Assembly: GCF_964194155.1 (NCBI RefSeq)
Contig: NC_135908.1
Location: 4,650,001-4,714,000 of the forward strand
Direction of reading: 5' to 3'
Origin: Cetorhinus maximus
Taxonomy: Eukaryota
DNA length: 64,000 bases
In this document: positions 13,520-49,500 of the stretch, in pieces
Layout: each line of letters opens with the position of its first letter
Position numbering within the stretch: position 1 is the stretch's first letter
The notes under the pieces: model-generated
Told to the model about the DNA's origin: nothing
Database searches by the model: none
The model's input: only the letters and a program-made list of their open reading frames with translations
Position numbers and translations under genes: made by a program

Positions 13520-14030
13520 GCCCTTATTCAGCTCACACTTAGAATGCTGTTCAAAATTCTGGTCTCCATATTACATAAAGATTACTGAAGTACTGGAGAA
13601 AGTGCAATTAAGATTTACTAGGATGATACCAGAACTGAAGGGGTTTAACTATCAGGAAAGACTGAAAGGCTGGTTGTCTTTTCTCTAGAAACTGAGAAAT
13701 AACCTGTTGGCGGTCTTTAAAATTATGAAGGGACTTGATAGTGTAGTTGTGGACAAGATGTTTCCATTGCTGGGGGGGTCCAAAACTAGGGGCCTTAAAT
13801 ATAAGACAGACACTAAAAAATCCAATAAGGGAGTCAGGAGAAAACTCTTTACTGGAGGATATGTGAAACTCACTACCACATGGAGCAGTTGAGGTGATTA
13901 GAATGTATTTAAGGGGAAGCTGGATAAGTACATGAGGGAGAAAAGAATAGCAAAGGTCGATAGGACGAAATAACCAGAACGTGAGGCGGCTTGTGAAGGG
14001 TGAACAGCAGCACAGGCATATTGGGCCAAA
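13520..14030 (+). mobile_element. Degraded CR1 LINE 3' fragment
   Basis: CR1 ORF2 C-terminal motifs (VFKIMKGLD, MFPL, TRG-K) and 3' UTR-like sequence. Confidence 0.7.
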
Positions 14031-14036
14031 CTGTTA

Positions 14037-14281
14037 AAAAAGCAGAAAATGCAGGAAGAACTCAGCAGGTTTGGCAGCATCTGTGGAGAGAGAAACAGAG
14101 TTAACGTTTCGAGTCCGTATGACTCTTCTTCAGAGCTAAAGAGAAATAGAAATGTGATGGAATTTAAACTATACTAGAGAAGGAGAAACTCCACAGATGT
14201 TGCCAGACCTGCTGGATTTTTCCAGAATTTTCTGTTTTTGTTTCCGATTTCCAGCATCCGCAGTATTTTGCTTTTCTCTTA
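14037..14281. mobile_element. Short Penelope-like insertion with inverted tails and a hammerhead motif
   Basis: Minus arm with CTGAAGA-a-gagtc-atacg-gactc-GAAACGTT, plus arm ending catccgcagtattttgcttt; TSD-like gggccaaactgtta (14023-14036) and gggccaaatagtta (14282-14295). Confidence 0.75.
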
Positions 14282-14339
14282 GGGCCAAATAGTTAGGTCC
14301 TGTAATACATACCGATTCCTCCATTACATCCTCACCTTT

Positions 14340-14742
14340 TTTTTATATTCTTTTACGGGATGTGGGCGTCGCTGGCAAGGGCAGCATTTGTTGCCCACAC
14401 CTAACTGCCCTTGAACTGAGTGGCTTGCTAGGTCACTTCAGAGGGCAGTTGAGAGTCAACTATATTGCTGTGGGTCTGGAGTCACATGTAGGCCAGACCA
14501 GATAAGAACGGCAGATTTCCTTCCCTAAAGGACATTAATGAAACAGATGGGTTTTTTTTTTAAAACAACACTCAACGGTAGTTTCATGGTCACCATTAGA
14601 GATTAGCTTTCAATTCCATTTTTTGAATAAACTGAATTTAAATTCCACCAGTGGCCGTGGTGGGATTTGAACCCATGTCACCAGAGCTTTAGCCTGGGCC
14701 TCTGGATTACTAGTGCAGTGACATTACCACTATGCCACTGTC
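14340..14742 (-). mobile_element. LF-SINE-like SINE, near full length
   Basis: Minus strand: tRNA-like head GGCATAGTGGTAATGTCACTGCACTAGTAATCCAGAGG...GGGTTCAAATCCCACCACGG and tail GGGCAGTTAGGTGTGGGCAACAAATGCTGCCCTTGCCAGCGACGCCCACATCCC; second copy at about 42689-43067. Confidence 0.7.
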
Positions 14743-15061
14743 TGCCCTGTTGTTACATAATCTCCTTCTCTAGTCCAAAGCCGGAAGTGTGCACTCGCCC
14801 TGCAATGTGTAGTTTGTGTGTGAAGTCACCAGCTTCCTGAGGTTTCACTGCAGCTTCTACAGTGCAACCTACTCTTGGGTCACAAGTATTAATATCTCTT
14901 TACACACTAACTTTGGTGTCACAGCAAAAAGAAAATGGCATCACTGCAATGTCAGAGCGGGAATGTAGATGCACCCAAAGATGCATCAGTCAAGGACTGC
15001 AGAAGATCAAGTATTCGGCAGTAGCACACTAACAATCCCAGATCAATAGTTTATGCCGTAC

Positions 15062-15270
15062 CTCTATTTTTATCACTGTGAAATCAGGCACTGGAGGATC
15101 ATACACAAACACATATGGATCACAAGGATCCCGAATGGACGGGAAGATCTTCGCATTCGCTGGCGCCGGTGCGTAATTGAGCATTTCACAAAGGGTCTGA
15201 ACGTCAATGAATTTTGGAGTGAGTCCAGCTCGCACTGTGTTATCAGAACATGCCATACATTCAATACAAT
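15062..15270 (-). CDS. MPI: MPI exon 7
   Basis: 209 nt, tcttttctag|AT...GAG|gtacgg; [24 protein letters not shown] includes the catalytic [12 protein letters not shown] motif. Confidence 0.96.
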
Positions 15271-15556
15271 CTAGAAAAGATAAAAGAAAGTTCATCAGCA
15301 CGTGCAACCGCTTAAATATCTCAACTGCAGTTAGAATCAGAATAGCTTATTTATTGGACCACGGAACCAGAGGTCGGTTGCAAAACTTACAAGCACCCCG
15401 CAAGGCTAAACAGCCTTTTCCCCCAATACATATGTGGAACGGATGTTGGCTAAAAGCATTTACTCCTATGTAAGCTAACTCCTCAGATTGATAGCTGGAA
15501 AATTAATTTGCAGTCAGAAGCATCTCACTTACAAACATTGGCTAGACAGGCGACAG

Positions 15557-15600
15557 GTGTGTGTGTGTGTGTGTGTGTGTCTGTGTGTGTGTGTGTGTGT
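15557..15600. repeat. (GT)n microsatellite
   Basis: Directly visible; an (AG)n tract also lies at about 26969-27003. Confidence 0.9.
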
Positions 15601-16518
15601 TTATTCACATGTGAGCAGAGGTCAGGGGAGGGAGCAAACTCAAAGCAGTTAAAGGGGAAAATCTGGGTAAGCTTCTAAAAGTGCTGAGTGTGCAACAGAC
15701 CTCTGAAGTGCCTTTAAATCCAGTCTGAAACTACACTGAAAATCCAGTCTGAAACTACACTGGAGTAATGCAGCCTCCCTGGGTGTGGGCATCGCACCAT
15801 TTCAGAGTTCGACCAGAATCGGATTCTAGAATAAGAGTGGTATTTTTACTGCATAATTTGGTCAACTATCCCTTTTTCAAAAAAATATTCTTTCGCAGGA
15901 TGTGGGCGTCTCTGGCTAGGCCAGCATTTATTGCCTATCCCTAAATGCCCTTGAGAAGGTGGTGGTGAGCCAACTTCTTGAAATGTTGCACTTCACGTGC
16001 TGTAGGTACACCCACAGTGCAATAGGAAGGGAATTCCAGAGTTTTGATCCAGTGACAGTGAAGGAATGGCGTTTTGTTCCAAGTCAGGATGGTTTGCGGC
16101 TTAGAGGGGAACTTGCAGGTGGTGGTGTTCCCATGTGTCTGCTGCCCTTGTCCTCCTCAGTGGCAGAGGTCGCAGGTTTGAAAGGTGCTGTCGAAGGAGG
16201 CTTGGTGAGCTGCCGCACTACATCCTGTCGATGGTGCACACTGATGCCACTGTGCATTTTAAATCAAGATTGATGGGGAAAGTAGTAAAAATATAGGTGC
16301 AACCATTCTGAACAATGCAACTCATTAAAAACTGTTCACAGTTCCAACTCTCAAAACATTATTTCCTGTTGTCAACATTATTGGTCAACTTTTGTGTCAA
16401 CTTGTAGTACCGTTGATTGCTAGGTCAACAATGATACAAACGCAGCAGCATAGGAAAAATACTGCATGCGAGGTAATGTGCTTTAAAGTTGTGAAACGCT
16501 CAACTCCACTTCAAATTC

Positions 16519-16730
16519 AGAAAATGTTGGAAAAACCCAGCAGGTCTAACCACATCTGTGGCGAGAAAGGCAGAGTTAACGTTTCCAATCCGTATAACCG
16601 AAGAAGAGTCATACAGATTCAAAACGTTAACTCTGTTTCTCTCTCCACAGATGCCATTAGACCTGCTGAGTTTTTCCAGCATTTTCTGTTTTTGTTTCAG
16701 ATTTCCAGCATCCGCAGTATTTTGCTTTTA
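16519..16730. mobile_element. Short Penelope-like inverted-tail insertion
   Basis: Two opposed copies of the PLE tail joined inside the hammerhead motif; TSD tccacttcaaattc (16505-16518) and tccacttcaaactc (16731-16744). Confidence 0.75.
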
Positions 16731-16806
16731 TCCACTTCAAACTCCTCCGCTGGTCACACGCGAATAAGTCAAAATAACTCTCCAGACTCACTCCAAATGT
16801 GGAAGG

Positions 16807-17023
16807 TGAAGTGGGATGAATGGAATGATTTCATATTTGTTGATATTAAAACATTTAATAGCCTTAGAGTAGACAACGTAGCTAGCCCTTTCTGAGCATG
16901 TTGAGATGTGCAGCCATAACTGTGGGAACCTAGATGAAAATGCAAATCGTAAAATTTAATGCCCTTAACAGCTTGCGTAAACAAGATGCTAAGGAGATAA
17001 GAAAACAGGCGGGTGAGGGGTGT

Positions 17024-17056
<33 letters not shown>

Positions 17057-17369
17057 TTATTGGACACCTGACACTAACAGGCTTCTTGAAGCCAAAAGGG
17101 TGCGCAACAGGGAACACCTGCGAGCTTGAATTGTCCAACTCATTAACTGGGTTTTGTGATGTATGTGTTAAAGTAATTGAAGGTTGTACCAAGCAGTGTA
17201 GTGAAATGTGATACCTAGAATCTATAAATTTGTTACACTGACTTTGTATCAGAGAGACCCTGGAAACCAACCAGGATACATCTCTCCCGGCATATACTTG
17301 AAATAAAATCTTTATTTACTTGAAGCTCACAGACTCAGAATGGTTGGTTTATTGTTTTTACCACAACCA
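16807..17369 (+). repeat. 5' LTR
   Basis: Collinear with 23660-24150 (shared gatttcatatttg, aaacatttaatagccttagagta, gagaccctggaaaccaaccaggata, aaaatctttatttacttgaagctcacagactcag); TATA-like tataaa near 17223, AATAAA near 17302, and a 32-nt G run (17024-17055) absent from the 3' LTR. Confidence 0.88.
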
Positions 17370-17370
17370 T

Positions 17371-17388
17371 TGGCATAGTCGGCAGGAT
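17371..17388 (+). other. Primer-binding site complementary to the tRNA-Ser 3' end
   Basis: TGGCATAGTCGGCAGGAT directly after the 5' LTR; 17/18 match to the reverse complement of the vertebrate tRNA-Ser 3' end ATCCTGCCGACTACG-CCA. Confidence 0.88.
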
Positions 17389-17595
17389 CCTCACAATATA
17401 GGTCTCTGGCACCAGATCGAACGCTGACATAAAAGGATGGGTGAGAATGTTCATTTTACCGCCCATTAGATAGGGAGGCCAGCGTTCGAGATGGGTAGCC
17501 AGTGGGTCAATTTGAGGACCCCAACCAGAGAACAGGTCGGTGAGTGGAGTAACTAAAGACAGTGTGGCGCCAAGATCGCGATTCGTTTCCCTGGG

Positions 17596-17695
17596 TAAAC
17601 AAGAAGGTATAATTGTAATTGTTCTTGGGGTAAACCCAGGTAAATTAAACAAGAAGGTATAATTGTAATTGTTCTTGGGGTAAACCCAGGTGAAT
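17596..17695. repeat. 50-bp tandem duplication in the ERV leader
   Basis: taaacaagaaggtataattgtaattgttcttggggtaaacccaggtRaat occurs twice. Confidence 0.9.
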
Positions 17696-20460: not shown

Positions 20461-20555
20461 ATCTCTCAATCTGTTTCTGTTAGCAGGAAAGCAATCAGCA
20501 GCTCGCTTAACTATTTTGTCTCAGACAAATCCTCAGAGCAATGCCAATCTAGAGA

Positions 20556-22196: not shown

Positions 22197-22328
22197 AGAT
22201 TTTGCTATCTAATGAGATAGTGCTTCCAGGCCTAGCCTAGGTCATTAGGACTTTGGCAAAGCCGTAAGAGATCAGTAGGATAACAGATCCAAAGCTCATT
22301 GGACTCAAATAGGATCTCTAGAACTACT

Positions 22329-23631
22329 ATCTGTTCTGATCGCATCTGTTCTGATGATGCTACCTTCAAAAACAGTTCCTCTGACATGTCCTCCTTCTTC
22401 CTTAACCGAGGTTTTCCACCCACGGTCGTTGACAGGGCCCTCAACCGTGTCCGGCCCATCTCCCGCGCATCCGCCCTCACGCCTTCTCCTCCCTCCCAGA
22501 AACATGATAGGGTCCCCCTTGTCCTCACTTATCACCCCACCAGCCTCCGCATTCAAAGGATCATCCTCCGCCATTTCCGCCAACTCCAGCATGATACCAC
22601 CACCAAACACATCTTCCCTTCACCCCCCCCGGCAGCATTCCGTAGGGATCGTTCCCTCCGGGACACCCTGGTCCACTCCTCCATCACCCCCTACTCCTCA
22701 ACCCCCACTTATGGCACCTCCCCATGCCCACGCAGAAGATGCAACACCTGCCCTTTCACTTCCTCTCTCCTCACCATCCAAGGGCCCAAACACTCCTTTC
22801 AAGTGAAGCAGCATTTCACTTGCATTTCCCCTAACTTAGTCTACTGCATTCATTGCTCCCAATGCGGTCTCCTCTACATTGGCGAGACCAAACGTAAACT
22901 GGGCGACCGCTTTGCAGAACACCTGCGGTCTGTCCGCAAGAAAGACCCAAACCTCCCTGTCGCTTGCCATTTTAACACTCCACCCTGCTCTCTTGTCCAC
23001 ATGTCTGTCCTTGGCTTGCTGCATTGTTCCAGTGAAGCCCAACGCAAACTGGAGGAACAGCACCTCACCTTCTGACTAGGCACTTTACAGCCTTCCGGAC
23101 TGAATACTGAATTCAACAACTTTAGATCTTGAACTCCCTCCTCCATCCCCACCCCCTTTCCGTTTCTTCCCCCTCCCTTTTGTTTTTTCCAATAATTTAT
23201 ATAGATTTTTCTTTTCCCACCTATTTCCATTATTTTTAAATCTATACCTGTAATGCCCTGTCAGTCTTTCCACCCCACCACCACTAGAGCTGTACCTTGA
23301 GTGTCCTGCCATCCATTCTTAATTAGCACATTCTCTTAGATAATATCACCACCTTCAACACCTCTTTGTTCCTTTATCTGTGACATCTTTTGATTATCTG
23401 CTCCTATCACTGCTTGCTTGTCCCTACAACCACCCCCCCCACCCCCAACTTCTCTCCCCCCACCACCCCCCCCACCTTAAACCAGCTTATATTTCACCCC
23501 TCTCCTAATATTACTCAGTTCTGTTGAAGGGTCGTGAGGACTCGAAACATCAACTCTTTTCTTCTCCGCCGATGCTGCCAGACCTGCTGAGTTTTTCCAG
23601 GTAATTCTGTTTTTGTTTTGTTCTCTACTTC
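22329..23631 (+). mobile_element. 5'-truncated Penelope-like element with GIY-YIG endonuclease C-terminus, inserted in the ERV
   Basis: ORF includes FLNRGFP, CxxxxCxxC linker (CPRRRCNTCP) and VYCIHCSQCGLLYIGETKRKLGDRFAEHL; premature TGA at 23073 is CGA in the 35-36 kb copy; hammerhead motif at about 23516-23555; flanking agaactact at 22320-22328 and 23632-23640. Confidence 0.9.
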
Positions 23632-23659
23632 AGAACTACTGGTGGACAAAAGGAGGGAC

Positions 23660-24544: not shown

Positions 24545-24911
24545 CTACACAACATGGGACATCTGTTAGTTCTGAACTGTGGCATTTACTGCATAAAATG
24601 GTGCCATTGCAAGTGAAAACATTAAAATGGCAAATATTAAAATCTAAAAACATGAAAATGGTACAAGTACGAAGCACAGTCAGTAGAGGTTAATCTTCCA
24701 GCTGGCCGTGTTTAACAGCTCCATTGAGGGAGCATGCCTGAAACAATGACTATTCTTTCTTTCCAAACTTATCAACTTATTGTGCAAATTACAGCATTTT
24801 ATTTTCCAGCATCTGCAGTTCTTTTATAGAATTTAAACCACGTAGATGTGACCAAAATCACAAAGGTCTTTCCACTAGTGAGAGGGTCAGTAACCACAGA
24901 ACACAGGTTTG

Positions 24912-25009
24912 TCTGATGAAGGGTCATACGGACTCGAAACGACAACTGTATCCCTCTCCGCAGATGCTGTCAGACCTGCTGAGTTTTTCCAGGTATTTTT
25001 GTTTTTGTT
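24912..25009 (+). mobile_element. 98-bp Penelope-like micro-insertion starting at the hammerhead core
   Basis: tCTGATGAagggtcatacggactcGAAAcgacaactg...gatgctgtcagacctgctgagtttttccagg; TSD acaggtttg at 24903-24911 and 25010-25018. Confidence 0.8.
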
Positions 25010-25018
25010 ACAGGTTTG

Positions 25019-26940: not shown

Positions 26941-26965
26941 GACAGTGGTGGGGTGGGGGGGGGTG

Positions 26966-30570: not shown

Positions 30571-30590
30571 GAATCTCATTCTTGTCTGTA

Positions 30591-30805
30591 ATATAGGCAA
30601 AATACTGCGAATGCTGGAGATCTGAAATAAGAACAGAAAGTACTGGAAAAACTCAACAGGTCTGGCAGCATCTGTGGAGAGAGAGATACAGATAACATTT
30701 CGAGTCCAATATAACTCTTCTTTGGTGTTTTAGAAAATTTCATAAAAATGTAAAACTTTTTTTAAAAACCGCTCAGTTTTTCCATTACTTTCTGTTTTTA
30801 TTTCA
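30591..30805. mobile_element. Older short Penelope-like inverted-tail insertion
   Basis: Minus arm gcaaaatactgcgaatgctggagatctgaaataagaacagaaag...tttcgagtcc and short plus arm ctcagtttttcc...; TSD attcttgtctgta (30578-30590) and attcttttctgta (30806-30818). Confidence 0.65.
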
Positions 30806-31605
30806 ATTCTTTTCTGTATCTGTCCACAAGTGAATTTGCACATCAAGCAAACCTTCAGGTTTAGTCATGGAGGCAAAAACCCCAGGATAAGAAATAGTTG
30901 GATACTGGCATTTTGTGGTGTGGGGAGGAATTGTAGACCTTTCTACGTAGAGGACAAATTAGATTGGGCTGAATAGCCTAGATAAATATGGATGAGGAAG
31001 GTCATAACATCCAGTAACTACATCCACTTGAACAGGCCTTTTTCACATCTGGTCCAAAAGGCACATCTGACAGTGTAGCACTCTTTCCACACAGCACTGA
31101 ATTGCCAGTCTAGATTACGTGTTCAAATTACTGAAATGAAGCTTGCTAACACAAACTTCTGACAACTGAAAGCACCACTGCTGAGCCATGCTGATTCGAA
31201 AGCTCTTAAAATTATTATATTAAGCAGTTAAAGAGTAGTTATGAGCACAGCATCACAAGAGAGTGGAGATGCAGCCTCATGTCAATGTGCCACATCCCCA
31301 AGCCTCTGGTCTATCCACCTTCCCTATCTGCAGAACTGAGCAGGGACCGAGCACGACTGCTGAGAGAAAAACGGAGAGCCCACCCCAGGGTGATCTCTCC
31401 TGGGCACCTGGCTCAAAGCAGCACTGATGGAGGCCAGAGAAGCACCAACATTAACGGAACAGCCAGCGAAAAAAATAGGAAAATAAAGTTCACTCTCTCC
31501 CAAAAAAGTAGTTTACTGACAGCATGACCCTTATTGAAAGCTGATCTCCCACTCAAAACAACCACCTCAGATTCTGTTTACATAAAGTGAAGTGAACAGC
31601 AATAC

Positions 31606-31733: not shown

Positions 31734-34700
31734 CTGGAAAAACAAAAGATTGATGATCTCTATTGGTCTCAAAATTACAACACAACATGTGGTGCAGGTT
31801 GGAAGAAAGATACAGGCCTCGGTTTTAACTTTCCAACCAATCATGCAGTAAGAAAGCTGCAAATCTACGCAGAACAATGCAAAAGGTTATTTTTACAATT
31901 CAAACAGGACTTTGAGTTTGCCCCTCCCACTTGCATCCAATCTCCAGGTTCATATTTGCATCAGACAAGCCAGGAGGGAGACGCATGAATAGATAGGTAG
32001 AATACTTCTTACCTTAATGTGCTTACACAAGTAAACTGCCAGTAGCACTGCCCATGATTAATTGATAAGTACGCATTCTTTTAAATTCCAATATTGTGAC
32101 AATGGTGGACAAGGGGTCTTAGAAATGCAGGACACCGAGCTATCTAATGGCCAGAGCCTCACTGCAAAAGCTCATCAAATGGGAAATGTTGACAGCCATT
32201 GACAAAGTCAGATGTTGACACAAACTTTACCTAAAATACTAATAACCAGGATGTGAGTGCCTTATTCTCAAAAACTTTGCATATGTTTGTATTGCTATCC
32301 CCACACAACACTTAAAAACCCTGGAATCCCAGGAAATAATAAACTATTTCATGACTTAATCAGTCCCTGTGACCTGGTGTAATATATACTGGGGGAAAAA
32401 AATTCCCAGGAATAAACTAGGAGTTATTTAATGATGGAACATTGCGGCGATAGTGTTGCAATTATTAATCTTTACCTGACAGGGTCATTGAGCATCCACA
32501 CAGAGCATATTATCACATTGACAGCTGCTCTAACCACAAAAGCAAATCTAAAATAGATACACACCCGGCAATGATTACACAAGTACAATCTTACCTGCGA
32601 GTCACATGTGACATTCAAAAACCAACCAGCTGGCTCAGTGGGTGAATGCAGTCACAGAGACCAGGTTTAACCAGAGCTCTCTGACGCTAGCAGGTGCAGC
32701 AATTGGGCCACTACATTTGAGCTTGGGACGATCACTCCTCAGTGACTCCTACAGATCATAATGACAGGCAAAGACACAAATCATATTCAACTGCGATGCC
32801 CTCTGCAGTTGAACAGGCTTGGGCACAGTACCCCGCAAGAAATCAGCACCTTAATTTTAAAGACCTTAATCAGATGACCTCTAAGTCTTCCTGTTTCTCA
32901 ATCCACATGGTGTCCTTCTGAACTCTTACAGGCCAGAGTATTCAAATCCTAGTCTATCACAAGGTAGCTGATCCCTGTCAGAGTGAATAAAACATTTATT
33001 CAACCTAATTGCACTTTTGGGCATGAACGGAATCCTTAAACTAAACGACCAACTTGAAATCGTTCCAAGTTATCTGTTATACTACCTTAAAATTCTGATA
33101 TGAGCTCCATTGCTAGAATATCTCCTTCGAATCACTCCCAAGTATCCCATTCATGTATCTAGAACATGTGCTTCATTCATTATCTTACAAGTTGATTAGC
33201 AAGCCTAATGTAAACTTTCAGCAACTGGGCACCTTCCAAACAGTATCAAAGTCTATGTCCAAGGGTTTGCCCACTATGGACAAAGTACTGGGAAAGTTCC
33301 ACACAGTCCTTCTTTGCTTATATGATTATTGATTTACCCCATGGCAATTTTTCTTTAAAAAAACTTTTGTTTTCTTTAATTAATCTGCTAGGCTGCATTT
33401 TACTGCTGGCCGTGCAGATAGACTGGCTGAATGCTATTCACTACTGGTTCACTGTAATAGAAGAATCTGACAGCAAGGTTGCCATCTCTGACTAATTTTT
33501 GCCATGTGGTCTTCAATCCTTGTGCAGACATGTCTTCCATGCCAAGATTCTGTCCTGTACCTGGAGCTGTACCTCCACAATGAATACTTTGCCTGTCACT
33601 CTCTAAAATATCTCCTAGACCTGCAATAAAAACAAGCAATGACTGAATTATAAAGTCTAGGGGATGCCCAAGTTACAAAAGATGCTTTTTCTACCTGTAT
33701 TTCATAAAGGCTGAGAACTATATTAGAACCTCTTCGTAATAACATACAGAACATCCTTAATGGTTCTCAGGATCTTAACATTGCAATTTCTCTGTTCAAT
33801 GATTTTAAACATTCAGATTAGAAGGATGAACCTGTTGACAAGATGAATGAGTGCAGAAATGATGAGAGAGATGAGGAAACCTTTTCTTTAAATGCGCCAA
33901 GTTATGACCTAAAATATGCTGTCAGAAAGAGTGGTGGTAGCAGATTCAATAATAACTTTCTAAAGGGGGTTGGAGGAAAAAGAAGAAAAATGGCAGAACC
34001 ATGAAAAAGAGCATGGGGGTGGGGGTGGGGGTGGTAATTGGATAGTTATTTTTTAAAGAACCAGGACAGGAACAAAGAGCCGAATTGTCTCCTTCTGTGC
34101 TGTGAGAATCTATGTAAATTCTGGAAAAATACCCATGAATAACACCAATCTCATTTTATTGCATTACACAGAAAGGATATGATTGATTGATTATTCACTA
34201 ATATCTGGTTTCGAAATCAGTCCACAATCTGCACATCAGTGTGGATTTAAAATTTTTCAGGTCATTTTTCATTTTATTTGCCTAACAGGACATAAATGAT
34301 CACATGCTGCCAAGCCACGAAGCATGACATATGTTCCATTGTCTCTTGAATGATGAACAGGTACAAGTTCACTCGTTGCTTATAAATCAAGTCCTTTTTT
34401 GACTAAATTAAGGGTGCATGGAGTCCAATTTTAAATCATAGCAACAATACATTACAGCTCAAAAAGTCAGTCCCTGAACTGTTTTCACAATAACTACGTC
34501 AAACTTATTGATCTATCTGTTGCTGATCATTCCAAGAACGTAGTAGCCAGGTCAAGAAAGCCACAAATCAGCACATACCTGCTGGGGCCAAACAAGGAGG
34601 TAAGGGCCCGTGGGATCCACGGCAATTTGGCAAATTAGATCCAAAATTGGTTTAGTGGCAGGAGGCAGAGGGTAATGGTCAAAAGTTGTTTTTGCGATCG

Positions 34701-35090
34701 GAAGCCTGTGACAAGTGGTGTACCCCGCAGGGATCAGTGCTGGGGCTCTTGCTGTTTGTAGTGTACATTAATTATTTAGACATGAATGTAGGAGGTATGA
34801 TCAGTAAGTTCGCAGATGACACGAAAATTGGTGGTGTCGTAAACAGTGAGGAGGAAAGCCTTAGATTACAGGACGATATAGATGGGCTGGTAAGATGGGC
34901 AGAGCAGTGGCAAATGGATTTTAATCCTGAGAAGTGTGAGGTGATGCATTTTGGGAGGACTAACGCAGAAAGGGAATACACAATGAATGGTAGGACCCTA
35001 GGAAGTACAGAGGATCAGAGGAACCTTGGTGTACATGTCCATAGACCCCTGAAGGCAGCAGCACAGGTAGATAAGGTGGTTAAGAAAGCA

Positions 35091-36545
35091 AAAAGCTAAA
35101 AGCTACTGCGGATGCTGGAAATCCAAAACAAAAACAGAATTACCTGGAAAAACTCAGCAGGTCTGGCAGCATCGGTGGAGAAGAAATCAGTTAACGTTTC
35201 GAGCCTTCACGGCCCTTCGGCAGAACTGAAGCATAGTTAGGAGAGGGGTGAAATATAAGCTGGTTTAAGGTGGGGGGGGGCGGGGGGGGAGAGAGAAGTT
35301 GAGGGTGTGGTGATTGTGGAGATAAGCAAGCAGTGATAGGAGCAGATAATCAAAAGATGTCACAGACAAAAGGATCAAAGAGGTGTTGAAGGTGGTGATA
35401 TTTGTCTAAGAAAAGTGCTAATTAAGAATGGAAGACAGGACACTCAAAGTACAGCTCTAGTGGGGGTGGGGTGGAAAAGACTAACAAGGTTTTAGTTTTA
35501 GATTTAAAAATAATGGAAATAGGTGGGGAAAGAAGAATCTATATAAATTATTGAAAAAAAAGGTGGGGGGTGGGAGAAACGGGGTGGGGATGGGGGGAGG
35601 GGGAGTTTAAGATCTAAAGTTGTTGAATTCAATATTCAGCCCGGAAGGCTGTAAAGTGCCTAGTCGGAAGATGAGGTGCTGTTCCTCCAGTTTGCGTTGG
35701 GCTTCACTGGAACAATGCAGCAAGCCAAGGACAGACATGTGGGCAAGAGAACAGGGTGGAGTGTTAAAATGGCAAGCGACAGGGAGGTTTGGGTCTTTCT
35801 TGCGGACAGACCGCAGGTGTTCTGCAAAACTGGGCGACCGTTTTGCAGAACACCTGCGGTCTGTCCGCAAGAAAGACCCAAACCTCCCTGTCGCTTGCCA
35901 TTTTAACACTCCACCCTGTTCTCTTGCCCACATGTCTGTCCTTGGCTTGCTGCATTGTTCCAGTGAAGCCCAACGCAAACTGGAGGAACAGCACCTCATC
36001 TTCCGACTAGGCACTTTACAGCTTTCCGGGCTGAATATTGAATTCAACAACTTTAGATCTTAAACTCCCCCTCCCCCCATCCCCACCCCGTTTCTCCCCC
36101 CCCACCACCTTTTTTTTCAATAATTTATATAGATTCTTCTTTCCCCACCTATTTCCATTATTTTTAAATCTAAAATTAAAACCTTGTTAGTCTTTTCCAC
36201 CCCACCCCCACTAGAGCTGTACTTTGAGTGTCCTGTCTTCCATTCTTAATTAGCACTTTTCTTAGACAAATATCACCACCTTCAACACCTCTTTGATCCT
36301 TTTGTCTGTGACATCTTTTGATTATCTGCTCCTATCACTGCTTGCTTATCTCCACAATCACCACACCCTCAACTTCTCTCTCCCCCCCCGCCCCCCCCCA
36401 CCTTAAACCAGCTTATATTTCACCCCTCTCCTAACTATGCTTCAGTTCTGCCGAAGGGCCGTGAAGGCTCGAAACGTTAACTGATTTCTTCTCCACCGAT
36501 GCTGCCAGACCTGCTGAGTTTTTCCAGGTAATTCTGTTTTTGTTT
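35091..36545. mobile_element. Palindromic Penelope-like insertion (two inverted arms of about 708 bp, 9-nt spacer)
   Basis: Left arm about 35123-35830 (minus) and right arm 35840-36548 (plus) are near-perfect reverse complements; mirrored ORFs end ...FAEHLRSVRKK...LNIEFNNFRS; exact 14-bp TSD tggttaagaaagca at 35077-35090 and 36546-36559. Confidence 0.95.
36442..36484 (+). ncRNA. Minimal type I hammerhead ribozyme motif (mirror copy at 35187-35229, minus)
   Basis: tcagtt CTGCCGA a gggcc gtgaa ggctc GAAA CG TT aactga: helix I tcagtt/aactga, helix II gggcc/ggctc, palindromic ACGT in place of helix III, as in Penelope-associated dimeric hammerheads; core position 6 is C rather than A. Confidence 0.72.
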
Positions 36546-37888
36546 TGGTTAAGAAAGCATATGGGATACTTGCCTTTATTAGCTGGCATAGAATGCAAGA
36601 GCAGGGAGGTTATGTTGGAGCTGTATAAAACGCTAGTTAGGCCACAGCTAGAGTACTATGTGCAGTTCTGATCGCCACACTATAGGAAGGATGTGATTGC
36701 ACTGGAGATTCACCAGGATGTTGCCTGGGCTGGAGCGTTTCAGCTATGAAGAGAGACTGGATAGGCTAGGGTTGTTTTTCTTAGAGCAGAGAAGTCTGAG
36801 GGGGGACCTGATAGAGGTATACAAAATTATGAGGGGCAAAGATAAAGTAGATAGGAAGAAACTTTTCCCCTTAGCGGAGGTGTCAATAACCAGGGGGCAT
36901 CGATTTAAGGTAAGGTGCAGGAGGTTTAGAGGGGATTTGAGGAAAAAATTTTTCACCCAGAGTGTGGTTGGAATCTGGAACACACTGCCCAAGGGGTGGT
37001 AGAGGCCAGAACCTTCACAACGTTTAAGAAGTATTTAGATGAGCAGTTGAAACGCCATAGCATACAGGGCTACGGGCCAAGTGCTGGAAAATGGGATTAG
37101 AATAGATAGGTGCTTGATGGCTGGCACAGAGACGATGGGCCGAAGTTATGTAACTCTACGACTGTGTAGGTTAATTCAGACCAGCAATCACATACAAAGT
37201 CACTGCAAAATGAAGACAAAAATAAACACTTGTATTTATATAGCACCTATCATGACCTCAGGACATCCCAAAGTACTTCACAGTCAACTAAGTACTCCCT
37301 AAAAGTGTAGTCACTGTTGCAATGTAGAAATCTCAGCAGCCAATGTTTACACAGCAAGATTCCACAACAAACAATATTAACTAGTTTTTTTTAGAACAGT
37401 GATGTCAATTGAGACACCAAGGGCATCAGGGATAACTCCCCTGCTCCTCTTCAAAATAGCGTCCAAGGATCTTTTAAACCCGCCTGCCCCTGCAGACAGG
37501 ACCTCAGTTTAACATCTCATTCGCACCTCTCGACACTGCTACACTCCCTTGCTTTCCTGTCTACCCCCTATAAGCTTTGAATATTTTTAAGGCTGAGTTA
37601 GATTCTTGATAAACAAGGGAATCAATGACCCTGCTTCCACTGCTCTCTGGGGAAGAGCATTCCACAGACTAATGACCGTCAGACTTAAAATACTTCTGTT
37701 TATTGCCACCTTAAATGGGAGGCACCTTATTTTTAAACTATGCCTCCTAGTTCTAATCTCTCCCATTAGGGAAAACATCTTCTCAGCCTGTAAATTCCCC
37801 TCAGGATCTTATATGCTTCAATAAAATCACCTCTCATTTTTCATGATCTTGTCAAATGACAGACAAGCTCAAGGAGTCAAATGGCCTA

Positions 37889-38686: not shown

Positions 38687-39121
38687 CCTGGTGCTGCTAA
38701 GTGGCCCTGGTGCTGCTGGTGGCCCTGGTGCTGCTAAGTGGCCCTGGTGCTGCTAATGGCCCTGGTGCTGCTGGTGGCCCTGGTGCTGCTGGTGGCCCTG
38801 GTGCTGCTAATGGCCCTGGTGCTGCTGGTGGCCCTGGTGCTGCTGGTGGCCCTGGTGCTGCTGGTGGCCCTGGTGCTGCTAAGTGGCCCTGGTGCTGCTA
38901 AGTGGCCCTGGTGCTGCTGGTGGCCCTGGTGCTGCTAAGTGGCCCTGGTGCTGCTAAGTGGCCCTGGTGCTGCTAAGTGGCCCTGGTGCTGCTAAGTGGC
39001 CCTGGTGCTGCTGGTGGCCCTGGTGCTGCTGGTGGCCCTGGTGCTGCTAAGTGGCCCTGGTGCTGCTAAGTGGCCCTGGTGCTGCTGGTGGCCCTGGTGC
39101 TGCTGTGGCCCTGGTGCTGCT
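38687..39121. repeat. 18/19-bp minisatellite (gtggccctggtgctgctg / gtggccctggtgctgctaa) in MPI intron 1
   Basis: About 23-24 tandem units directly visible. Confidence 0.96.
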
Positions 39122-39260
39122 GATGTGACCGTTCAGAAGTCACAACACGCAGTCCTCGCTCATCCCCGAATAACCGTTACCGAACACTCCAGCCTGCAGC
39201 TACCTCGGTACCACAAACGGCCATCACCCGGTGTCGCCGTTCCCCTGACTGGAATCTCAC

Positions 39261-39385: not shown

Positions 39386-39408
39386 GAAGTGAGGCTGGCT
39401 CTGGATGT

Positions 39409-39544
39409 TGAAGGGTCATAAGGACTCGAAACGTTAACTGTGCTCTTCTCCACCAATGCTGCCAGACCTGCTGAGTTTTTCTAGGTATTTCTGTTTCTGT
39501 TTTTGTTTTGGATTTCCAGCATCCGCAGTTCTTTGCTTTTATTT
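39409..39544 (+). mobile_element. 136-bp Penelope-like micro-insertion in the MPI/SCAMP2 intergenic region
   Basis: Starts inside the hammerhead core (tgaagggtcataaggactcgaaacgttaactg) and ends catccgcagttctttgcttttattt; exact 14-bp TSD ctggctctggatgt at 39395-39408 and 39545-39558. Confidence 0.85.
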
Positions 39545-40679
39545 CTGGCTCTGGATGTAATTGCAGTTTGAATTGATATGTAGTGTTGTTGGTGCTTTCA
39601 TATAAGATTCTGGCGTAGAGGTCCTCTGTCAGTGTCCATGAATCGGCTTTCCACTTGCCCCGTCTAATTTTATATTGTTGAAAGAAAATAAAACATTTAT
39701 TTAATCTACCACATCCTCAGGACATCCTAAGTCACTGCCCTTCCAATGAGCCTTTATGAAATGCCACATATGCTATGTAGGCAAACATGACACACAATCT
39801 ATGCACAATAAAGTACCACAAATAATAAATGACCAGCTTTTTTAGGGAGAAATGTTGGTTAGAACATTAAGAGGACTCATTGGTTTTTTTTTCTCTGATT
39901 AGTGTTTTTAATATCCACCTGAACAGGCTGACAGCCTTTTGATATAACTTCTCATCTGAAAGTTAGTATCACTCGATGATGCAGCTTTCTTTTAGAAAGC
40001 TACTGTTTGGGGCCATGTGGCCTCCTTCTGCGCTGTAAATTTCCATAATTCTACGATATATGTCAGCTTGGGTTATGTCTTATGTGCTTGAATTCAGGAG
40101 TGCAGCCTGTCCACACAAACTTCTGAACAGCTAAGAAATAAAGGCACACATGTTCTGAGGAAAGGTCGTCAACCTTAAACGTTAATTTTTGCAGATTTTT
40201 TTTAGTCACTATTTGATGGGATGAGTGTCACTGTGTCAGTGCCAAGGCCAGCATTTGTTGCTCACACCTAATTGCCCCATTTGAGAAGCTGGTGGCGAGC
40301 CGCTTTCTTGAACGGCTGCAATCCACCCAGATGCTTGCTCCCAGACATTTCCAGCATTTTATGTTATTATTTCAGCTTTCTAGCATCTGCAGTATTTTGC
40401 TTTTGGGTGAGGTATGTGTTGAGTTTGATTTTCTAAATACGCTAAAAATGTTTATATTGTGTTGACGAGGGGTGTCATTCCGGATCTGACTATTCTGACT
40501 GCTCGAAGTGACTTTAAATCTTCAAGACCCATCTTTGGGTTGTTTCCATTTATAAGCTTTTCATTATCATGACTACCACATCAGCAGGTCATGTCTGGTT
40601 CAGCCGGCAGCTAAGAACATAAACGTGCCAAACTACGGATTTTAGTCCGTGATGCCGACACAAAAACAAAGCAGAAACT

Positions 40680-43067: not shown

Positions 43068-45999
43068 CTAGAATATCCTGGCCAAGGATAGAGAATATTC
43101 TTTTTAGAAATAATCATGGAAAAATAACTATTTAGATTTGAAGAAGGTAAAAACAAAAAAAAATGCTGGATGACTCAGTAGGTTAGGCAGTTATCTGTGT
43201 AGTGCGAAAAGGTTAATGTTTCAGCTTCCTTACCTTTCATCAGCTAAAATATCTAGCTTGGTCCTGCAGAATTGAAACAAGAATTTACCATCTCAATTTG
43301 GACCATAGACTGTCAGTGTGGAATTTATCATACAACTCCCATGTTATTGCACAATAATGTTTCTGGAAAGGATAGTTTGATGCAGCTTTGTGTGGTGGAG
43401 ATTGGAAATAGGGACAGTTTTAAAGTATCCTTAGCGCAAGCATGCTGAAGTAGGCAGAATTGAAAATATAAGCTGGCTGAGCTTTGATGGAGAAAAGCAC
43501 CTGCAATGTTTTAATAACATAAACATTGTATATATTTTTTAAATTTTTCTTTCACTGGATTTGGGTATTGCTGGCTAGGCCAGCATTTATTGCCCATTGT
43601 TAATTGCCCTTGAGAAGGTGGAGGTAAGCTGCCGCCTTGAGCTACTGCAATTGACTCATTGAATGCGGGAGGGTAAAATTATAAAGTTTATTTCATGTAT
43701 TTTTATAAATGAAAGCTAGACGTCAGGTAATGGTAAATCAGCCGTTTGGTGTGTCAAAGGCCCACATAACGGTTTTTCAGCTTGATGTGTGCTTGTTTTA
43801 ATTATGGATCATGTTTTTGTTTTTAAAAATATACGCTTTCTATGTTAGGTTTATTGATTTATACTGTATGGCAACAGCACCAATTTCAAGAAACTTGAAG
43901 TTAGGCATTAAGGAGCATCTGAAAGGGGGGCGAGGAGGGGTGAGAGGTAAACATGTGAATGACCTTAGGAAGGGAATTTGAGTCCATGGCCCAGAGAGCT
44001 TAAGGCAGAACTGCCAGTGGTAGAGCAATTACAAGTGGGGATGTGCAAGAGGCAGAATTGGAGGAGCACAAAGATCCTGGAGGGCTGGAGGAAAGGGGGT
44101 GGGGGGCGTACGGGTGAGGAAACCAGGATGAGAATTTTAAAATTGAGGTGTTGCCGGACCAGGAGCCATATCTATATATATCAGCGAGTACAAGGTAATG
44201 GTGAACCAGACTTGGTGCAAGTTAGAATATAGGCAGCAGAGTTTTGGTTGAGTTAAAATTAATGAAGGGTTTAAGATGGGGAGGCCAACCAGGCAGTGAG
44301 ATGAATAGCAATTTGACGCTACACGCTTGGATGAGTGTGACATGTGACAGTGTTGATGGCAACTTACTTGGATTAAAGAATAGTTTGTTAAGCAAGAGTA
44401 AAACTGAAAGGATAGTCCAGCCAAGAATGAAAATGTGAGGGGGTGCATGTTAAAAAGTTATTCCATGTGCAATAGATCAGGTTCCCCACTAAAATGATGT
44501 CCCAGTTTCTGCAAATTTTAATTTCCCTACTTCACTTTGAATCTAGTGCCTAGAATGCACATATATTTGTTCCTTTTGATTTAGTTGCATATTTTCTTAA
44601 GCTTTGGTGCAGTTGGAGTTCCTGCACATTATCAACTCATAAAAGGTGTGGGTGTATTTGTATGATCTGAGATTGAAATTCTGACGATGCAAGTATGAAG
44701 TAAATGAAAATACAGCAATTCTAAATAATTTTAAAGGCAGGATACTGTTTTCTATCTTAATTCCGAGCTCTTCCAATACAGCTTTGTTAAATTTTGCTTT
44801 CCTTAATTTCAATAAGTTTTTTAACAAGTAATAAGATCTGACTTTCAAAGCAAGTTATTCAGAGAATACAAGTTTGACCAGTTAAATTCCATGAATTTTA
44901 GTCACTTTAACTGATGTCTTCACTCCATGTTGCAATATGCACAGAAATCCTGTTGTTCAGAAAGTCTCAGGCAACACTCGTATACACCTTAAGTCCATTT
45001 TAATGGGTGGTTCCTTTCCAGCCCTATAGTGAATATCCTGCTCTGCATCATTATTTACAGAGGAACAATCATCAAAATGTGACTCCATGAAAGAATTAAT
45101 CTAGCATTTGATTTATTTTTGATGTGATGCTATATGTAGCTTAATTTTATTTTATGCTTATTTTCACTTATTCCCCAATCATTTTTGCCTTTTCTAGTAG
45201 TCACATAAAGAAAAGAAAGGCTTGTATTTATTTGGAGTTTTCACAGCCACAGTCATCTCAAAGCACCCCCAGTAATGCACTGGAGTGTCAGCCTTGATTT
45301 TTTTTTTGTGTTCAAGTCCTGGAGTGGGACTTGAACCAAATGCTGGGATATGGTTTCAGGTCCAATGGCAGAGGCCCTCTGCTAACTTGCCCCAATGTAA
45401 AATATTAAGTTTCACTGTGCAGAACTGAAGCAAGTATTTGCCAACGCTGTTGGGGCAGTCTGTGGGTGTGATTTTTGTCACAGCACTGCTACGTTCTTGC
45501 ACCATTAATATAGTTTCTGACTATTCATCACGTGAATCTGAACAGAGCATTATGGTGACCTATTTAATCATGGCCAGATTTATTATTCTTGCCTGATGTT
45601 TGCTGATAACCAGTTGCCACTGCTTGAAGTTTAACGATTATTTTTTATTCTATTTTTTCTGTTCCTTATTCTCTTTCCCTTCCTCCTACCTTTCTCACAC
45701 CAACAATCCAGTTGAGTCCCATTGAAGCCTCCAGCTCAGGTTGCCTGATTCAGTGCAGAGCAGGTGCAGAACCTATGACCTTTGGCTCAGTGCCAAACCA
45801 TGTGATGCATTTATTCGCTGAGCCATAACTTTAAGTAAACTGAAGAAGTAAATATGTTGTCACGAAGTGTACCATGTTAGATGTTCTGTTTGCACATAAC
45901 ACCTACCTCCTTTTATTCAAAAGTAAATCTTCATTAAGGAGCTTCTCTGTCTAGGTTCAAAGGAAGTAAGTTAATGTGGAGGAGAGGAGAAGCATACTT

Positions 46000-46345
46000 T
46001 TTTCCAAAAATATTCTTTATTCATAAAATTTGTAAAAGTGCATAACATAACAGTTCAGATTTGACATTTTAAGTGCAATACAGATCAGTTTCTTTCAATA
46101 CAATACAGTGCCTCACTTTGCTTGCCATTACAGGTTATATTTGCAATGTACATTTACATTTTATGTCAAACATTCTGGTGCATACAGCCCAAGTGGTTTT
46201 ACCCGGTTTCCAGTCCCTTGGTATACTATTTCAAAAGGGCCTGCTTAGACAGTGACTCCTCATTGAACTTTTGCAGCGGCTGCCCCAAGCTTTTGTGCAT
46301 CCCTCAGCACGTAGTCCTGGATCTTGGAATGTGCCAGTCTGCAAG
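46000..46345 (-). mobile_element. Tx1/L1-clade non-LTR retrotransposon 3' end
   Basis: Minus strand CRLAHSKIQDYVLRDAQKLGAAAAKVQ, then a 3' UTR with AATAAA and an A-rich tail; recognised from memory as a Tx1-like ORF2 terminus. Confidence 0.55.
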
Positions 46346-46377
46346 AATGTGCTAGGAGGCAAGGTAATCCTTGCTAA

Positions 46378-46541
46378 GATGAAAACAAAATACTGTAAAT
46401 GCTGGAAATCTGAAATATAAACAAAGAAGACTGGGAAAACTCAGCAGGCCTGGCAGCATCTGTGGCGAGAGAAACAGAGTTAACATTTCGAGTCTGTATA
46501 ACTCTCTCATCAGATGCTTCCAGACCTAATGAGTTTTTCCA
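46378..46541. mobile_element. 164-bp Penelope-like inverted-tail insertion
   Basis: Minus arm runs to CTGATGA-gagagttatacagactc-GAAATGTT; short plus arm cagatgcttccagacctaatgagtttttcca; exact 14-bp TSD gtaatccttgctaa at 46364-46377 and 46542-46555. Confidence 0.82.
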
Positions 46542-49500
46542 GTAATCCTTGCTAACTTTGTTCATTGGCAATTTTTTCAAATGCTGTTGAGTTTTTGGAC
46601 AGCAAGCCCCTCTTTATAGTTCAAACTGACTTTCATTGTAACATAACTGGAAGGAATGGAAACTGTTTTAAAAAAATTGTGTAGAAAACACAAACAAGTA
46701 GTTAATGGTGCTTTTACAGTTACTACTATTTTATTGATCCACTTTACCTCCCAATTTAATTGCATCAGCTTTGTTTCTGAAACAGTTGCATCAGTTGCTG
46801 TTATGTATTCAAAATAAGATGTTCCATTCCAAGAGTAATAGATTTTAAATGTTGTCTCCAGGAGAATTGATAGTTAAGTTTAAAAAGCACATTTATTGCA
46901 GTTACAGTACTTGGTCCAGATATATGCAGCTACACTCGATATATGCCAGTTTGTGCAGGTACTGTGCGTGTCCAACTGAACCGCTGAATTGCAGTAAGTT
47001 CGTTTGGCCCTGTTATTGGTCTGTTGCAAATTACCTGCTTTTTTTGATGGACCGATTGTTAATTTTCGTTGAAGGTTTCAAACTGTTTCTCCCAACCACC
47101 TTCCCACCCTCTCCAAAAAGAGGAAGCTAATAAGGGAACCCTGATAGTTCTCGTTATCATTTTTCTGTATATTTGATTTGCTGGCATCTTATTTCTGTTT
47201 TATAACTTCACTTTCTGTACATGAAAGCATTGTTTTGAGTAGGTGACCTTGCCTTTTGGAAGTTTAAGCCAAGTGCCCCAAAGCATGTGTCAAAATATTG
47301 CAATGGGGCCCTCAACGTATTTACATTTTAAAATCACTTCCCCAAAGAAATTATAAATAAAAACATACTTTTTAAATGTGTAGTATAAACACAAAAAGAA
47401 TTGTCAAAAGGAGAGATTACCAGGAGATGGAGTGGCAAATGAAGCACAAGTTGCTGAGTCTAGCAGATCGAAACAGCGAACAACCTGAAAGATTTTTCAT
47501 TTCACAACTGATACTTTGCTGCATAAATTGGGTTTTTAAAACTATCACTTGGGTCAGTGTTACTTCACCAATGCCTACACTGCTTTCGAAAAACCTGGAG
47601 CATGGAAATTATTTTAGAAGCAAATTTATACCTCATTATTGGTTGGTGGATCGTCACAAACATGGGTTGGTTTTGGTTCTGTTTGGAACTTTAATCAAAT
47701 TTTCATATAGTGATAAGGTGGTGGTGAACAAAACCTTGACTACCACATCTCTCTGGCCAATATGGCACTTTGCCTATAAGTGATTTTTAACAATGTTTAT
47801 TAAGTCATTCACTTCATGCAGTGTAGTAAAGTGGAGTTTGCAAACCTTCCTCCCAGGTTGCCCAAAACTAGCAGTTCTATCTGTAAAGCACAGTGACAGG
47901 CATTGATTGAGTTGTGCATAAAGGAAGTCGTGTCAGCACTATTTTAGTTCACTTTATTTGAAAAATAATCTTTGTGGTATTGAAGGTTTGTGTTGCAAGG
48001 CGATTCCTCTTGTTCCCATATCTCCTGTAGGTCAACTCCTTGTTGTGATATGGTTCCATGAAAAATGATTGCCACCTGATTATCTTTAGCATGAGTCCCA
48101 TTTTTCACATGAGGCATTACTGAATCTGACTATTTCACCATAGAGGCTGCGTGAGTACATAACAGCTAAGTCTGATCATGTGCTCACCTGGCATTTACAT
48201 GCATCCTTTCTGTGGATGTTGCTAGATTGGAACAGAATTTTTGTTGACTTATTTCGCCCCCCCCCCCCCCCCCCTCCCTAATCTAGGATGATGAGACCTA
48301 TTGTTATAACAAGGCCATTTCCCTGTCTCAATGTAGGCCAGGATTGAACTAATATCTTTCTGGTTGGATGGTTCAGCTCATTAACCTACAAAGTCCCTGG
48401 ATTTCTAGGGATAGCAAAAGGATACCTTTTTTAAATAAGATTCTTATTATCTAATTTTAGTTTATGATTTCAGATTGTTATAATTGTCACAAGCACATTT
48501 TTATTATCATTGAAAATCAGATTTTTGGGTAACATCTAATATGAGATGCTGAACGTGCATCCTCACAAATGTAGGAGACCTTGAGTAAAGTGCTGAGGTG
48601 GTTAGCTGAATGCCATTCAGGTAACTTGTCTGCATTTTTAAAATGAAGGCATTGTATCGCAGTAATTTGAATTGAATCAATATAGGTACAGTCCAAATTT
48701 TCTATATTGCAAAGATGTTGTAATTTCAGTTTGACAAATTGCCTTGGCACTGACATTGGATGCAAAACTTAGCTATTTTTAAAAATCTGATCTATTTAAG
48801 CATTCTGAAAGAAATTTCATAACTAACGCAATCAAAGAAGTACAAAAAATTAATGTTAAACTCTGGGCTGTACCACTGAGATACAGCTCAATCAGTAAAG
48901 CAAATAGGATGCAGAACTATATAGAAGAAAACAATGGAGTATAGGAATGCAACATGCTCTGGTCAAACTATACCTTGAGTGCTGTGTCCAATTCCAATCA
49001 AGGTGAAAAGAAGACATTCAAGCCCATGGGGCATTTAACTCAAGTAATGAAGAATTGAGTGTGAAAACGATGGGAGGAATTTGGTCTTTTAGTCATGAAA
49101 AGAAGCAACTGAGGGGTGACGTACGGCAGTGAATGGTATGGGAAAAGGTCAATCTGGACATTAAAGATGAGCTAAAATGTGACACTAGTAAAAGGCAGAT
49201 TTAGGTCAATTTTGAGGAACTTCTTCACACAAAGGATGATTGACACACAGAGGCAGAAAACAGATGAATAAGAAGGAAAGGAATTAAATTTAAAAACAGA
49301 TGGATGCTCTACTGGGATAACTGGTCTTTCTGGATGGATAATCCAAGATAATGCAAACGGCCTTTGTCATCCATATTTCTGGGATTAACTTTCTAATTTC
49401 TCTTGATTTGTATTGTCAATTTGCTTTTGTTTTGAAGGCCTGGTCAGAGGTTGTGGAGAAGAGGAAATTGAAGGATCTAAATTAACAGCTGAGAGAATTA

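Follow-up and report, generated by a model that had tools for sequence, protein, structure and literature searches.

The 64,000-nt stretch of the Cetorhinus maximus genome analyzed here (referred to as the window; contig NC_135908.1 of assembly GCF_964194155.1, positions 4,650,001 to 4,714,000 of the forward strand) carries a series of short, often hairpin-like insertions of a Penelope-like element (PLE). Counts on about 230 related copies from this 4.0-Gb genome, of which 113 have two inverted arms, lead us to think it likely that these are truncated insertions of a Neptune-type PLE, generated by a double cut with a 14-nt stagger, where both cut ends prime reverse transcription at two sites on the RNA, A and B, and where the short copies end at the transcription start of the element. 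Element positions are given relative to +1, the A at the 5´ edge of its hammerhead motif (36444 of the window in the young copy described below).

The element monomer is 3302 bp long and is found in partial tandems with a tandem junction. In order, it carries a TATA-like box (-31/-30), +1, the hammerhead (+1 to +40), sites A and B (about +100 and about +145, respectively) and an ATG (+183), followed by one open reading frame (ORF) for a reverse transcriptase (RT), a CX4CxxC linker and a GIY-YIG nuclease with a CCHH motif, and then by a 3´ untranslated region (UTR) that runs into the next pseudo-long terminal repeat (pLTR). The initial annotation of the window, which was made from the letters alone, described a single PLE 3´ module; the window set is actually made up of three subfamilies (old, middle and young) that are 70-90% alike. 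Related copies were sampled with exact patterns, giving 649 matches for the young subfamily, 32,643 for middle plus young, and 4,030 and 336 for the old subfamily. The unselected young set consisted of 81 sites among the first 100 matches, 7 of which (complex or tandem) were dropped, as were 3/26 further young rows (edge, N-run, duplicate). The middle set was taken from the first 91 of 100 matches listed, corresponding to 67 sites, with 6 complex or edge sites dropped, and the old set from 70 of 100 matches listed, with 1 duplicate removed from the one-armed count and one copy (L290) corrected by hand. Two insertions were each found at two places (L035/L036 and L320/L331) and are segmental duplicates.

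Target duplications, start sites and the pairing of arms

The length of the target duplication peaked at 14 bp across the 113 two-armed copies. For the young two-armed copies, 50/52 had a duplication of 12-17 bp, with a mode of 14 bp (22/52), while matches between shuffled flank pairs did not exceed 6 bp in 150 trials. Duplications of at least 12 bp were present in 38/39 two-armed versus 10/35 one-armed copies of the unselected young set (p=1e-10) and in 30/33 versus 15/28 copies of the middle set (p=0.001); in the old set, where copies are decayed, the value was 16/28 for two-armed copies. The duplication thus appears intact when there are arms at both ends and eroded when there is one arm, as would be expected if both overhangs serve as primers. 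Paralogues of repeat targets were used as proxies for the empty sites. A spanning paralogue was available for 34 of 88 rebuilt sites, with a modal indel of 0 in 24/34 and of at most 4 nt in 34/34, and for the long interspersed element (LINE) hit at 35091, the duplicated 14-mer was present as a single copy in 16/18 paralogues. Two DNA runs of a single sample showed no empty allele for L008, a young insertion, and are uninformative on this point. The duplication mode, the contrast between two-armed and one-armed copies and the empty-site paralogues all uphold the proposal in the initial annotation of a staggered cut of about 14 nt with priming from both 3´ ends. For two copies that each have one duplication, the arms were separated by 285 and 346 bp of non-element DNA (L042, 1629-1913, and L049, 1294-1639, respectively), possibly captured host sequence.

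Reading on the nicked strand, GTT directly followed 26 of 84 inferred nicks, compared to 1.5 expected, and C preceded only 3, with both effects seen at both edges of the insertions. The target is therefore made up of two weak sites in inverted orientation, spaced by about 14 nt, with the motif W^GTT on both strands. The cut ends showed priming microhomology of 1-4 nt with the element, reaching at least 2 nt at 27/50 B junctions and 18/50 A junctions versus 17-18% in simulations. Four copies (L065, L122, L213 and L253) hold sequence from beyond site B. The template thus extends past the tail, and priming is therefore internal rather than near the RNA 3´ end as first supposed. It uses two fixed sites on the RNA, spaced by about 40 nt, with one used per cut end. 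We also noted template jumps to 70-160 nt beyond the tail, forming miniature partial tandems, in L065 (1390-1924), L253 (346-1011) and L122 (353-876); such jumps are a possible route to pLTR regeneration.

Among the first 100 young matches, all close pairs on opposite strands faced outward. One-armed young copies terminated at site A in 18 cases and at site B in 17, and given this equal use, an independent choice of site by each end would give about half same-site pairs. Instead, exactly one tailed end was found for 51/52 young two-armed copies as printed (52/52 once L012 is read as A+B), for 30/33 middle copies (31 with L219) and for 26/28 old copies. Collectively, these genomic patterns make priming from both cut ends very probable.

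Comparison of the two arms of young copies (n=51) showed that the tail-less arm was longer in 18 and the tailed arm in 13, while the breakpoints were within 30 nt of each other in 20. Permutation gave a mean of 3.3 and a maximum of 11 such near-equal pairs, and the number among long copies was 8/37 (p=0.00015). Rare variants were common to both arms in 22 cases versus 2.7 expected for the middle set and in 14 versus 1.6 expected for the young set. A single RNA per two-armed event would fit these observations best, and we lean toward it. The near-symmetric breakpoints in 20/51 copies and the variants that the arms have in common could also be explained by a fold-back, in which one end primes and the cDNA copies itself before joining the other end. 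In the 18/51 copies with the longer tail-less arm, however, this arm has 5´ sequence missing from the tailed arm, while the tailed arm has the tail, such that neither can have copied the other and fold-back is excluded for this asymmetric class. In addition, site A serves as a start in 18/35 one-armed copies, and the second junction has a full duplication and the same nick motif. We consider fold-back improbable as a general explanation and retain priming by both cut ends. For six copies (L182, L190, L333, L336, L160 and L048), micro-arms of 6-20 nt were observed between the duplication and the main arm, and some one-armed copies are thus cryptic two-armed copies.

The wall of 5´ ends at +1

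The 5´ ends of short copies pile up at +1. For old one-armed copies that reach +6 (n=36), 15 ended at -5 to +6, and none of the remaining 21 ended in the next 100 nt. Among old and middle arms taken together (n=191), 39 ended at -2 to +5 compared to 6 at the predicted hammerhead cut site (+33 to +39). Genome-wide, 992 exact mirror joins lay at +1, while the predicted cut had 11 and the ACGT palindrome 30. In 6/6 of the +1 hits viewed, two inverted arms were joined, and the outer ends varied between hits. For the joins at the cut site, a control with the pattern reversed gave 12, yet 4-5 of the 6 hits viewed were real, indicating that these joins are rare rather than absent. A TATA-like box was located at -32 to -28 in 19/24 old copies (at -32 in one) and at -31 to -27 in 168/174 middle and young copies. 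The sequence at +1 fits the initiator consensus, and L084, a copy with the 5´ ORF, starts exactly at +1. Because the pile-up lies 35 nt upstream of the predicted cut and is accompanied by the TATA-like box at -31/-30 and the initiator-like +1, we read the wall with reasonable confidence as the RNA 5´ end, that is, the transcription start, rather than as a stop imposed by the fold.

The alternative, that twin priming operates but the hammerhead fold or a protein bound to it stops RT or acts as a joining point, draws on the coincidence of the wall with the 5´ strand of helix I and on the short inverted repeats there, which supply joining microhomology; the start site and the hammerhead edge are moreover inseparable in this element family. 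However, if the fold halted RT, ends would be expected at its 3´ foot (about +40), and self-cleavage would be expected to give ends at +36, at odds with the 6/191 arms and the 11 versus 992 joins. Longer palindromes closer to the 3´ end gave only 11 and 30 joins, so microhomology alone is insufficient, and the middle and young subfamilies, despite a non-canonical core, still join at +1. We regard this explanation as unlikely. The ribozyme had been cast in the initial annotation as a preferred stop or joining point for RT. The joining role is upheld in the old subfamily: both cDNAs that end at +1 carry a self-complementary 4-mer at their terminus, sealing a perfect mirror. A stop imposed by the fold is the less likely reading, given the position of the pile-up. 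The breakpoint peak that had been predicted at the ribozyme was seen at the 5´ edge of the hammerhead but not at its predicted cut. The counts argue that the hammerhead does not set the ends of the element.

A 3´ splice site was also considered, with mini copies derived from spliced or splicing RNA. The sequence ahead of +3 resembles an acceptor, with a pyrimidine tract and an AG ending at +2, and in Drosophila virilis Penelope, the intron extends up to the 5´ end of helix I (PMC4209133). Nevertheless, 0/218 distinct occurrences joined +3 to a credible upstream donor in the element. The 15 rows that appeared displaced were inverted arms matched via a reference holding one, or weak matches, and the 14 unmatched upstream flanks had no common sequence, with 10 keeping the AG but having a random base before it. 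No strong donor was found within 420 nt, and most walls directly adjoin the duplication or the other arm, leaving splicing a very improbable source of the wall.

Finally, 992 copies with an identical central junction, a size like that of short interspersed elements (SINEs) and a high copy number could be taken to indicate a non-autonomous family of SINEs or MITEs (miniature transposable elements with inverted repeats) that moves as a fixed-end unit. However, among the six viewed copies with this junction, the arms were of different lengths and the outer ends were not the same. Copies range continuously in size between about 60 bp and more than 4 kb, one end rule applies throughout, and the ends are RT start sites with a 14-bp duplication and without terminal inverted repeats of fixed length. 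This reading is largely refuted, and we give it hardly any credence. Random duplication lengths or MITEs bounded by terminal inverted repeats, either of which would have spoken against the initial annotation, were not borne out, as there is a fixed 14-bp peak together with variable ends. We keep to transcription start as the probable cause of the wall.

Several observations weigh against parts of the account given here. No duplication was found for 8/28 old two-armed copies. The shared variants are weak in the old set (5 versus 1.4 expected, with a maximum of 6), the nearest arm was the arm's own partner in only 11/30 middle pairs, and shared variants may instead go back to a single source locus or to conversion of one arm by the other. 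Middle one-armed copies lack the wall (2/28 at -5 to +6), and in the young and middle sets 5´ ends also gather near -30 and near -78, which this account does not explain. Only 2/19 copies with an upstream pLTR start near +1, and a larger number begin close to sites A and B. The ratio of 992 to 11 is between exact matches to two 16-mers, for which decay or variation may differ. Lastly, a study of PAc, an anole Poseidon element, saw equal start sites on both strands and so provides no in vitro support for the pairing rule (PMC11167929).

The -78 and -30 clusters flank a variable poly-C tract, with 13 young ends falling within 3077-3086 of the monomer, and could reflect G-rich cDNA structure or a second start site. 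The -78 cluster was rejected as a start site, since no TATA-like box is present there and 0/19 copies with an upstream pLTR begin there. Nine of these 19 long copies (L090, L093, L094, L105, L106, L097, L098, L092 and L110) begin at +62 to +154, near sites A and B of the upstream pLTR, as if a bound protein or a second primer blocks RT.

The element and its insertions in the window

In L040, 850 codons are open and match RVT_1 (E 4e-7), while the GIY-YIG match of the window copy (E 3e-4) is slightly short of the Pfam cut-off. Starting from the ATG at +183, the frame is open to the end of the locus (692 codons) in 3/6 copies, with an early stop in 2/6 and a downstream change in 1/6. By the definitions of the DKG, CCHH and linker motifs for PLEs (PMC8557442), the DKG motif is present as ADKGG, the CCHH motif takes the form VYCIRCSQCGLLYIGE, where two cysteines lie between GIY and YIG, and then EH and CHF, and a C-X4-C-xx-C linker separates RT and nuclease in L040 and in the window copy. 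Further features of endonuclease-containing (EN+) PLEs are present, namely a pLTR formed by partial tandem, a tail of about 34-45 nt and inverted arms. On these sequence features we classify the element as an EN+ PLE and, because of the linker, as Neptune/Nematis-type. A Poseidon label was dropped, given that the CX2-5CxxC linker is present whereas the Penelope/Poseidon clade is defined by its absence. A PDB sequence search revealed no relative.

From its pairing and core, the motif at +1 is recognized as a hammerhead of the minimal type I class, for which cleavage is predicted. Its helix III is palindromic and is flanked by GAAA and NUH. Across 245 motifs, the fourth pair of helix II is UA in 123 and CG in 113, a single change between subfamilies, and helix I is AGUU/AACU in the middle and young subfamilies with one mismatch in the old. 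The canonical CUGANGA core is found in 49/245 (old subfamily and CUGAUGA), while A6 of the hammerhead core numbering is changed to C or U in 183, in a sample weighted by locus choice. The non-canonical cores of the middle and young subfamilies are CUGCCGA (for example at window 36448-36454), CUGUUGA and CUGCUGA. An Rfam scan gave no hammerhead match, only microRNA-like hairpins below threshold, and the folding energy of the hammerhead region compared to shuffles was not unusual (z -1.1 to +1.0). The absence of A6 from recently active subfamilies would fit dispensable cleavage.

All eight insertions reported for the window were found at their coordinates with the duplications given for them (8/8). 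As had been described, five are two-armed with 3´ ends facing outward on both sides, one terminal and one internal. These correspond to sites B and A, tailed site B (+137 to +143) marking the end of one arm in each copy, while its partner arm reaches to or just inside site A (+92 to +106). The short arms stop in or at the hammerhead core, also as first reported, with stops from +4 to +15 (+4 for the insertion starting at 24912, +6 at 39409, +7 and +15 at 16519, +8 at 30591 and about +4 to +13 at 46378).

The young two-armed copy (35077..36559, duplication 14/14) has a tailed arm from 35091 to about 35833 on the minus strand and a tail-less arm from about 35828 to 36545 on the plus strand, which are 99% identical over about 714 bp, have CUGCCGA cores and meet within the nuclease domain at breakpoints separated by about 13 nt. 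Its pLTR contains a TATA-like box, a putative promoter, at 36414..36421 (plus strand), about 30 nt upstream of +1, and at 36439..36484 (plus strand) an initiator-like start that overlaps with helix I of its minimal type I hammerhead, for which the cut is predicted after +35. The insertion disrupts the RT of another LINE (34656-35090 and 36560 onward; RVT_1, E 1e-10).

The other four two-armed copies belong to the old subfamily. At 14023..14295, a tail-less minus-strand arm (14038-14166, -29 to +102) with a canonical CUGAAGA core and a tailed plus-strand arm (14189-14281, +51 to +141) are flanked by a 12/14 duplication (14023-14036 and 14282-14295). At 16505..16744 (duplication 13/14), the tail-less arm (16519-16598, minus strand, +15 to +101) and the tailed arm (16600-16730, plus strand, +7 to +139) join inside the hammerhead. 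At 30578..30818 (duplication 12/13), an AT-rich spacer lies between the tailed arm (30591-30722, minus strand, +8 to +142) and the tail-less arm (30769-30805, plus strand, +70 to +106). At 46364..46555 (duplication 14/14), the tailed arm extends from 46378 on the minus strand (about +4/+13 to +141), and the tail-less plus-strand arm ends at 46541 (+47 to +92).

The remaining copies are one-armed and on the plus strand. The 5´-truncated middle copy at 22320..23640 (duplication 9/9) has a short templated repeat at its 5´ junction and contains the end of the RT region, the CX4CxxC linker, the GIY-YIG nuclease with one in-frame stop and the 3´ UTR, followed by the TATA-like box, a hammerhead with a CUGUUGA core and a terminus at site A. 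Of the two mini copies, that at 24903..25018 (duplication 9/9, CUGAUGA core) extends from +4 to about +103 (site A), and that at 39395..39558 (duplication 14/14) extends from the core interior (+6 to +9) to tailed site B. A ninth tail fragment, not previously listed (40348..40410, plus strand, +78 to +143), had no duplication that we could find. The initial annotation was thus correct about the insertions, but the high density it ascribed to them is ordinary for this genome, at about 1 per 10 kb. We counted 9 insertions or fragments in the 64-kb window compared to 19 in 190 kb elsewhere, sampled at a fixed position of 19 contigs, with 0 for the reversed-pattern control.

Elsewhere in the window, an open frame at 59743-60168 (plus strand) matches the SCAMP family (E 1e-15) and is probably a host-gene exon. 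Tandem repeats comprise a C-rich minisatellite with a 23-46 bp period (5230-6490), a GC-rich 35-bp repeat present four times (6599-6742) and an 18/37-bp array (38687-39125).

A candidate integration pathway and its relation to known systems

In the pathway we propose, the element protein would act as a two-subunit complex and make both nicks about 14 nt apart, leaving 3´ overhangs; the dimer is suggested by the prediction for the anole protein together with the paired nicks. Each cut end would prime at one of sites A and B, with one RT per end and probably on one RNA. The downstream RT would displace the upstream cDNA, and the two cDNA 3´ ends would be joined by microhomology. One-armed copies would arise when one arm fails and the overhang of the failed arm is trimmed. 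Mini copies would result when priming takes place within the 5´ pLTR, at a distance of 100-145 nt from where the RNA begins, with run-off at the start of hammerhead-uncut RNA. A broader suggestion, which we put forward tentatively, is that concerted dimer integration is the PLE default, such that the full product would have mirror arms, and LINE-like one-armed copies would each represent a half that failed. Since the start sites also lie close to the 5´ end of the RNA, promoterless mini-hairpins would accumulate by the hundreds of thousands through run-off at the transcription start of the element.

PLEs are the sister group of telomerase. The genomic rules translate into testable numbers for their integration: an inverted W^GTT pair cut with a stagger of 14 nt, a single start for each end, stops at equal positions when both ends copy a shared RNA, and the use of uncut RNA. 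Provided that the density of 19 per 190 kb holds, there would be roughly 400,000 short hairpin insertions genome-wide, and such copies would be prone to mis-annotation as MITEs, SINEs or microRNA precursors.

In L1 twin priming, both target 3´ ends prime, giving an inverted 5´ part, an intact duplication and microhomology at the internal join, but the site reached by the second primer is upstream and variable, and there is no overlap between the arms. In the copies described here, both starts are fixed and close together and the arms overlap almost fully, in keeping with the distinction from L1 drawn at the outset. For the 52 young two-armed copies, the overlap runs from site A back to the shorter breakpoint. 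L092 is a possible non-overlapping case of the L1 type.

Metazoan PLEs carry minimal type I hammerheads with helices I and II, a bulged A before helix II and a palindromic ACGU replacing helix III, and pairs of hammerhead motifs 100-700 bp apart on opposite strands have been noted (PMC4209133). The same helices, bulged A and palindrome are present here, though A6 is lost in the middle and young subfamilies and the predicted cleavage site rarely marks an end. Non-LTR retrozymes form tandem arrays of hammerhead monomers (bioRxiv 10.64898/2026.07.22.740005), while none were found among the tandem repeats of the window or the insertions analyzed. As proposed for this element, the promoter of D. 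virilis Penelope lies in the pLTR (PMC2377424).

Inverted arms, a one-sided tail and two start sites have been published for PLEs (PMC3846280, PMC8557442, PMC11167929), with the origin of the inverted ends and the one-sided tail described as undefined (PMC8557442). Our searches of the open literature on PLEs turned up no description of twin priming, of a fixed stagger, of the pairing rule, of the nick motif or of a wall at the start site, though subscription papers and supplements may hold more. EN+ PLEs of the Pen2a_Av type have an inverted 5´-truncated copy, partial tandems and a 30-40 nt tail at one end and, like the element described here, a single RT and GIY-YIG ORF, a hammerhead and TATA/initiator-like motifs in the pLTR, and a target duplication (PMC3846280, PMC8557442). 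The duplications of Adineta vaga PLEs are 8-10 bp and are termed variable, as second-strand cleavage follows synthesis, whereas here two-armed copies peak at 13-15 bp and one-armed copies are variable. Relative to these PLEs, what is added here is the strict pairing with one tailed end, the near-equal breakpoints, the nick motif and the wall at +1, counted on the copies sampled.

For PAc, both strands were cut and extended in vitro, two adjacent internal RT starts defined the tail, uncut RNA was used and a dimer was predicted; the portions of that account covered give no stagger, start-site and strand pairing or genomic duplication statistics (PMC11167929). Two-strand extension, two internal starts and uncut RNA would be common to both systems, as read here from genomic copies. 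PAc, however, belongs to the Poseidon clade, prefers ATT and starts inside the ORF, whereas the element in the window has a Neptune-type linker, is found at GTT and has its sites 40-80 nt before the ATG (+183).

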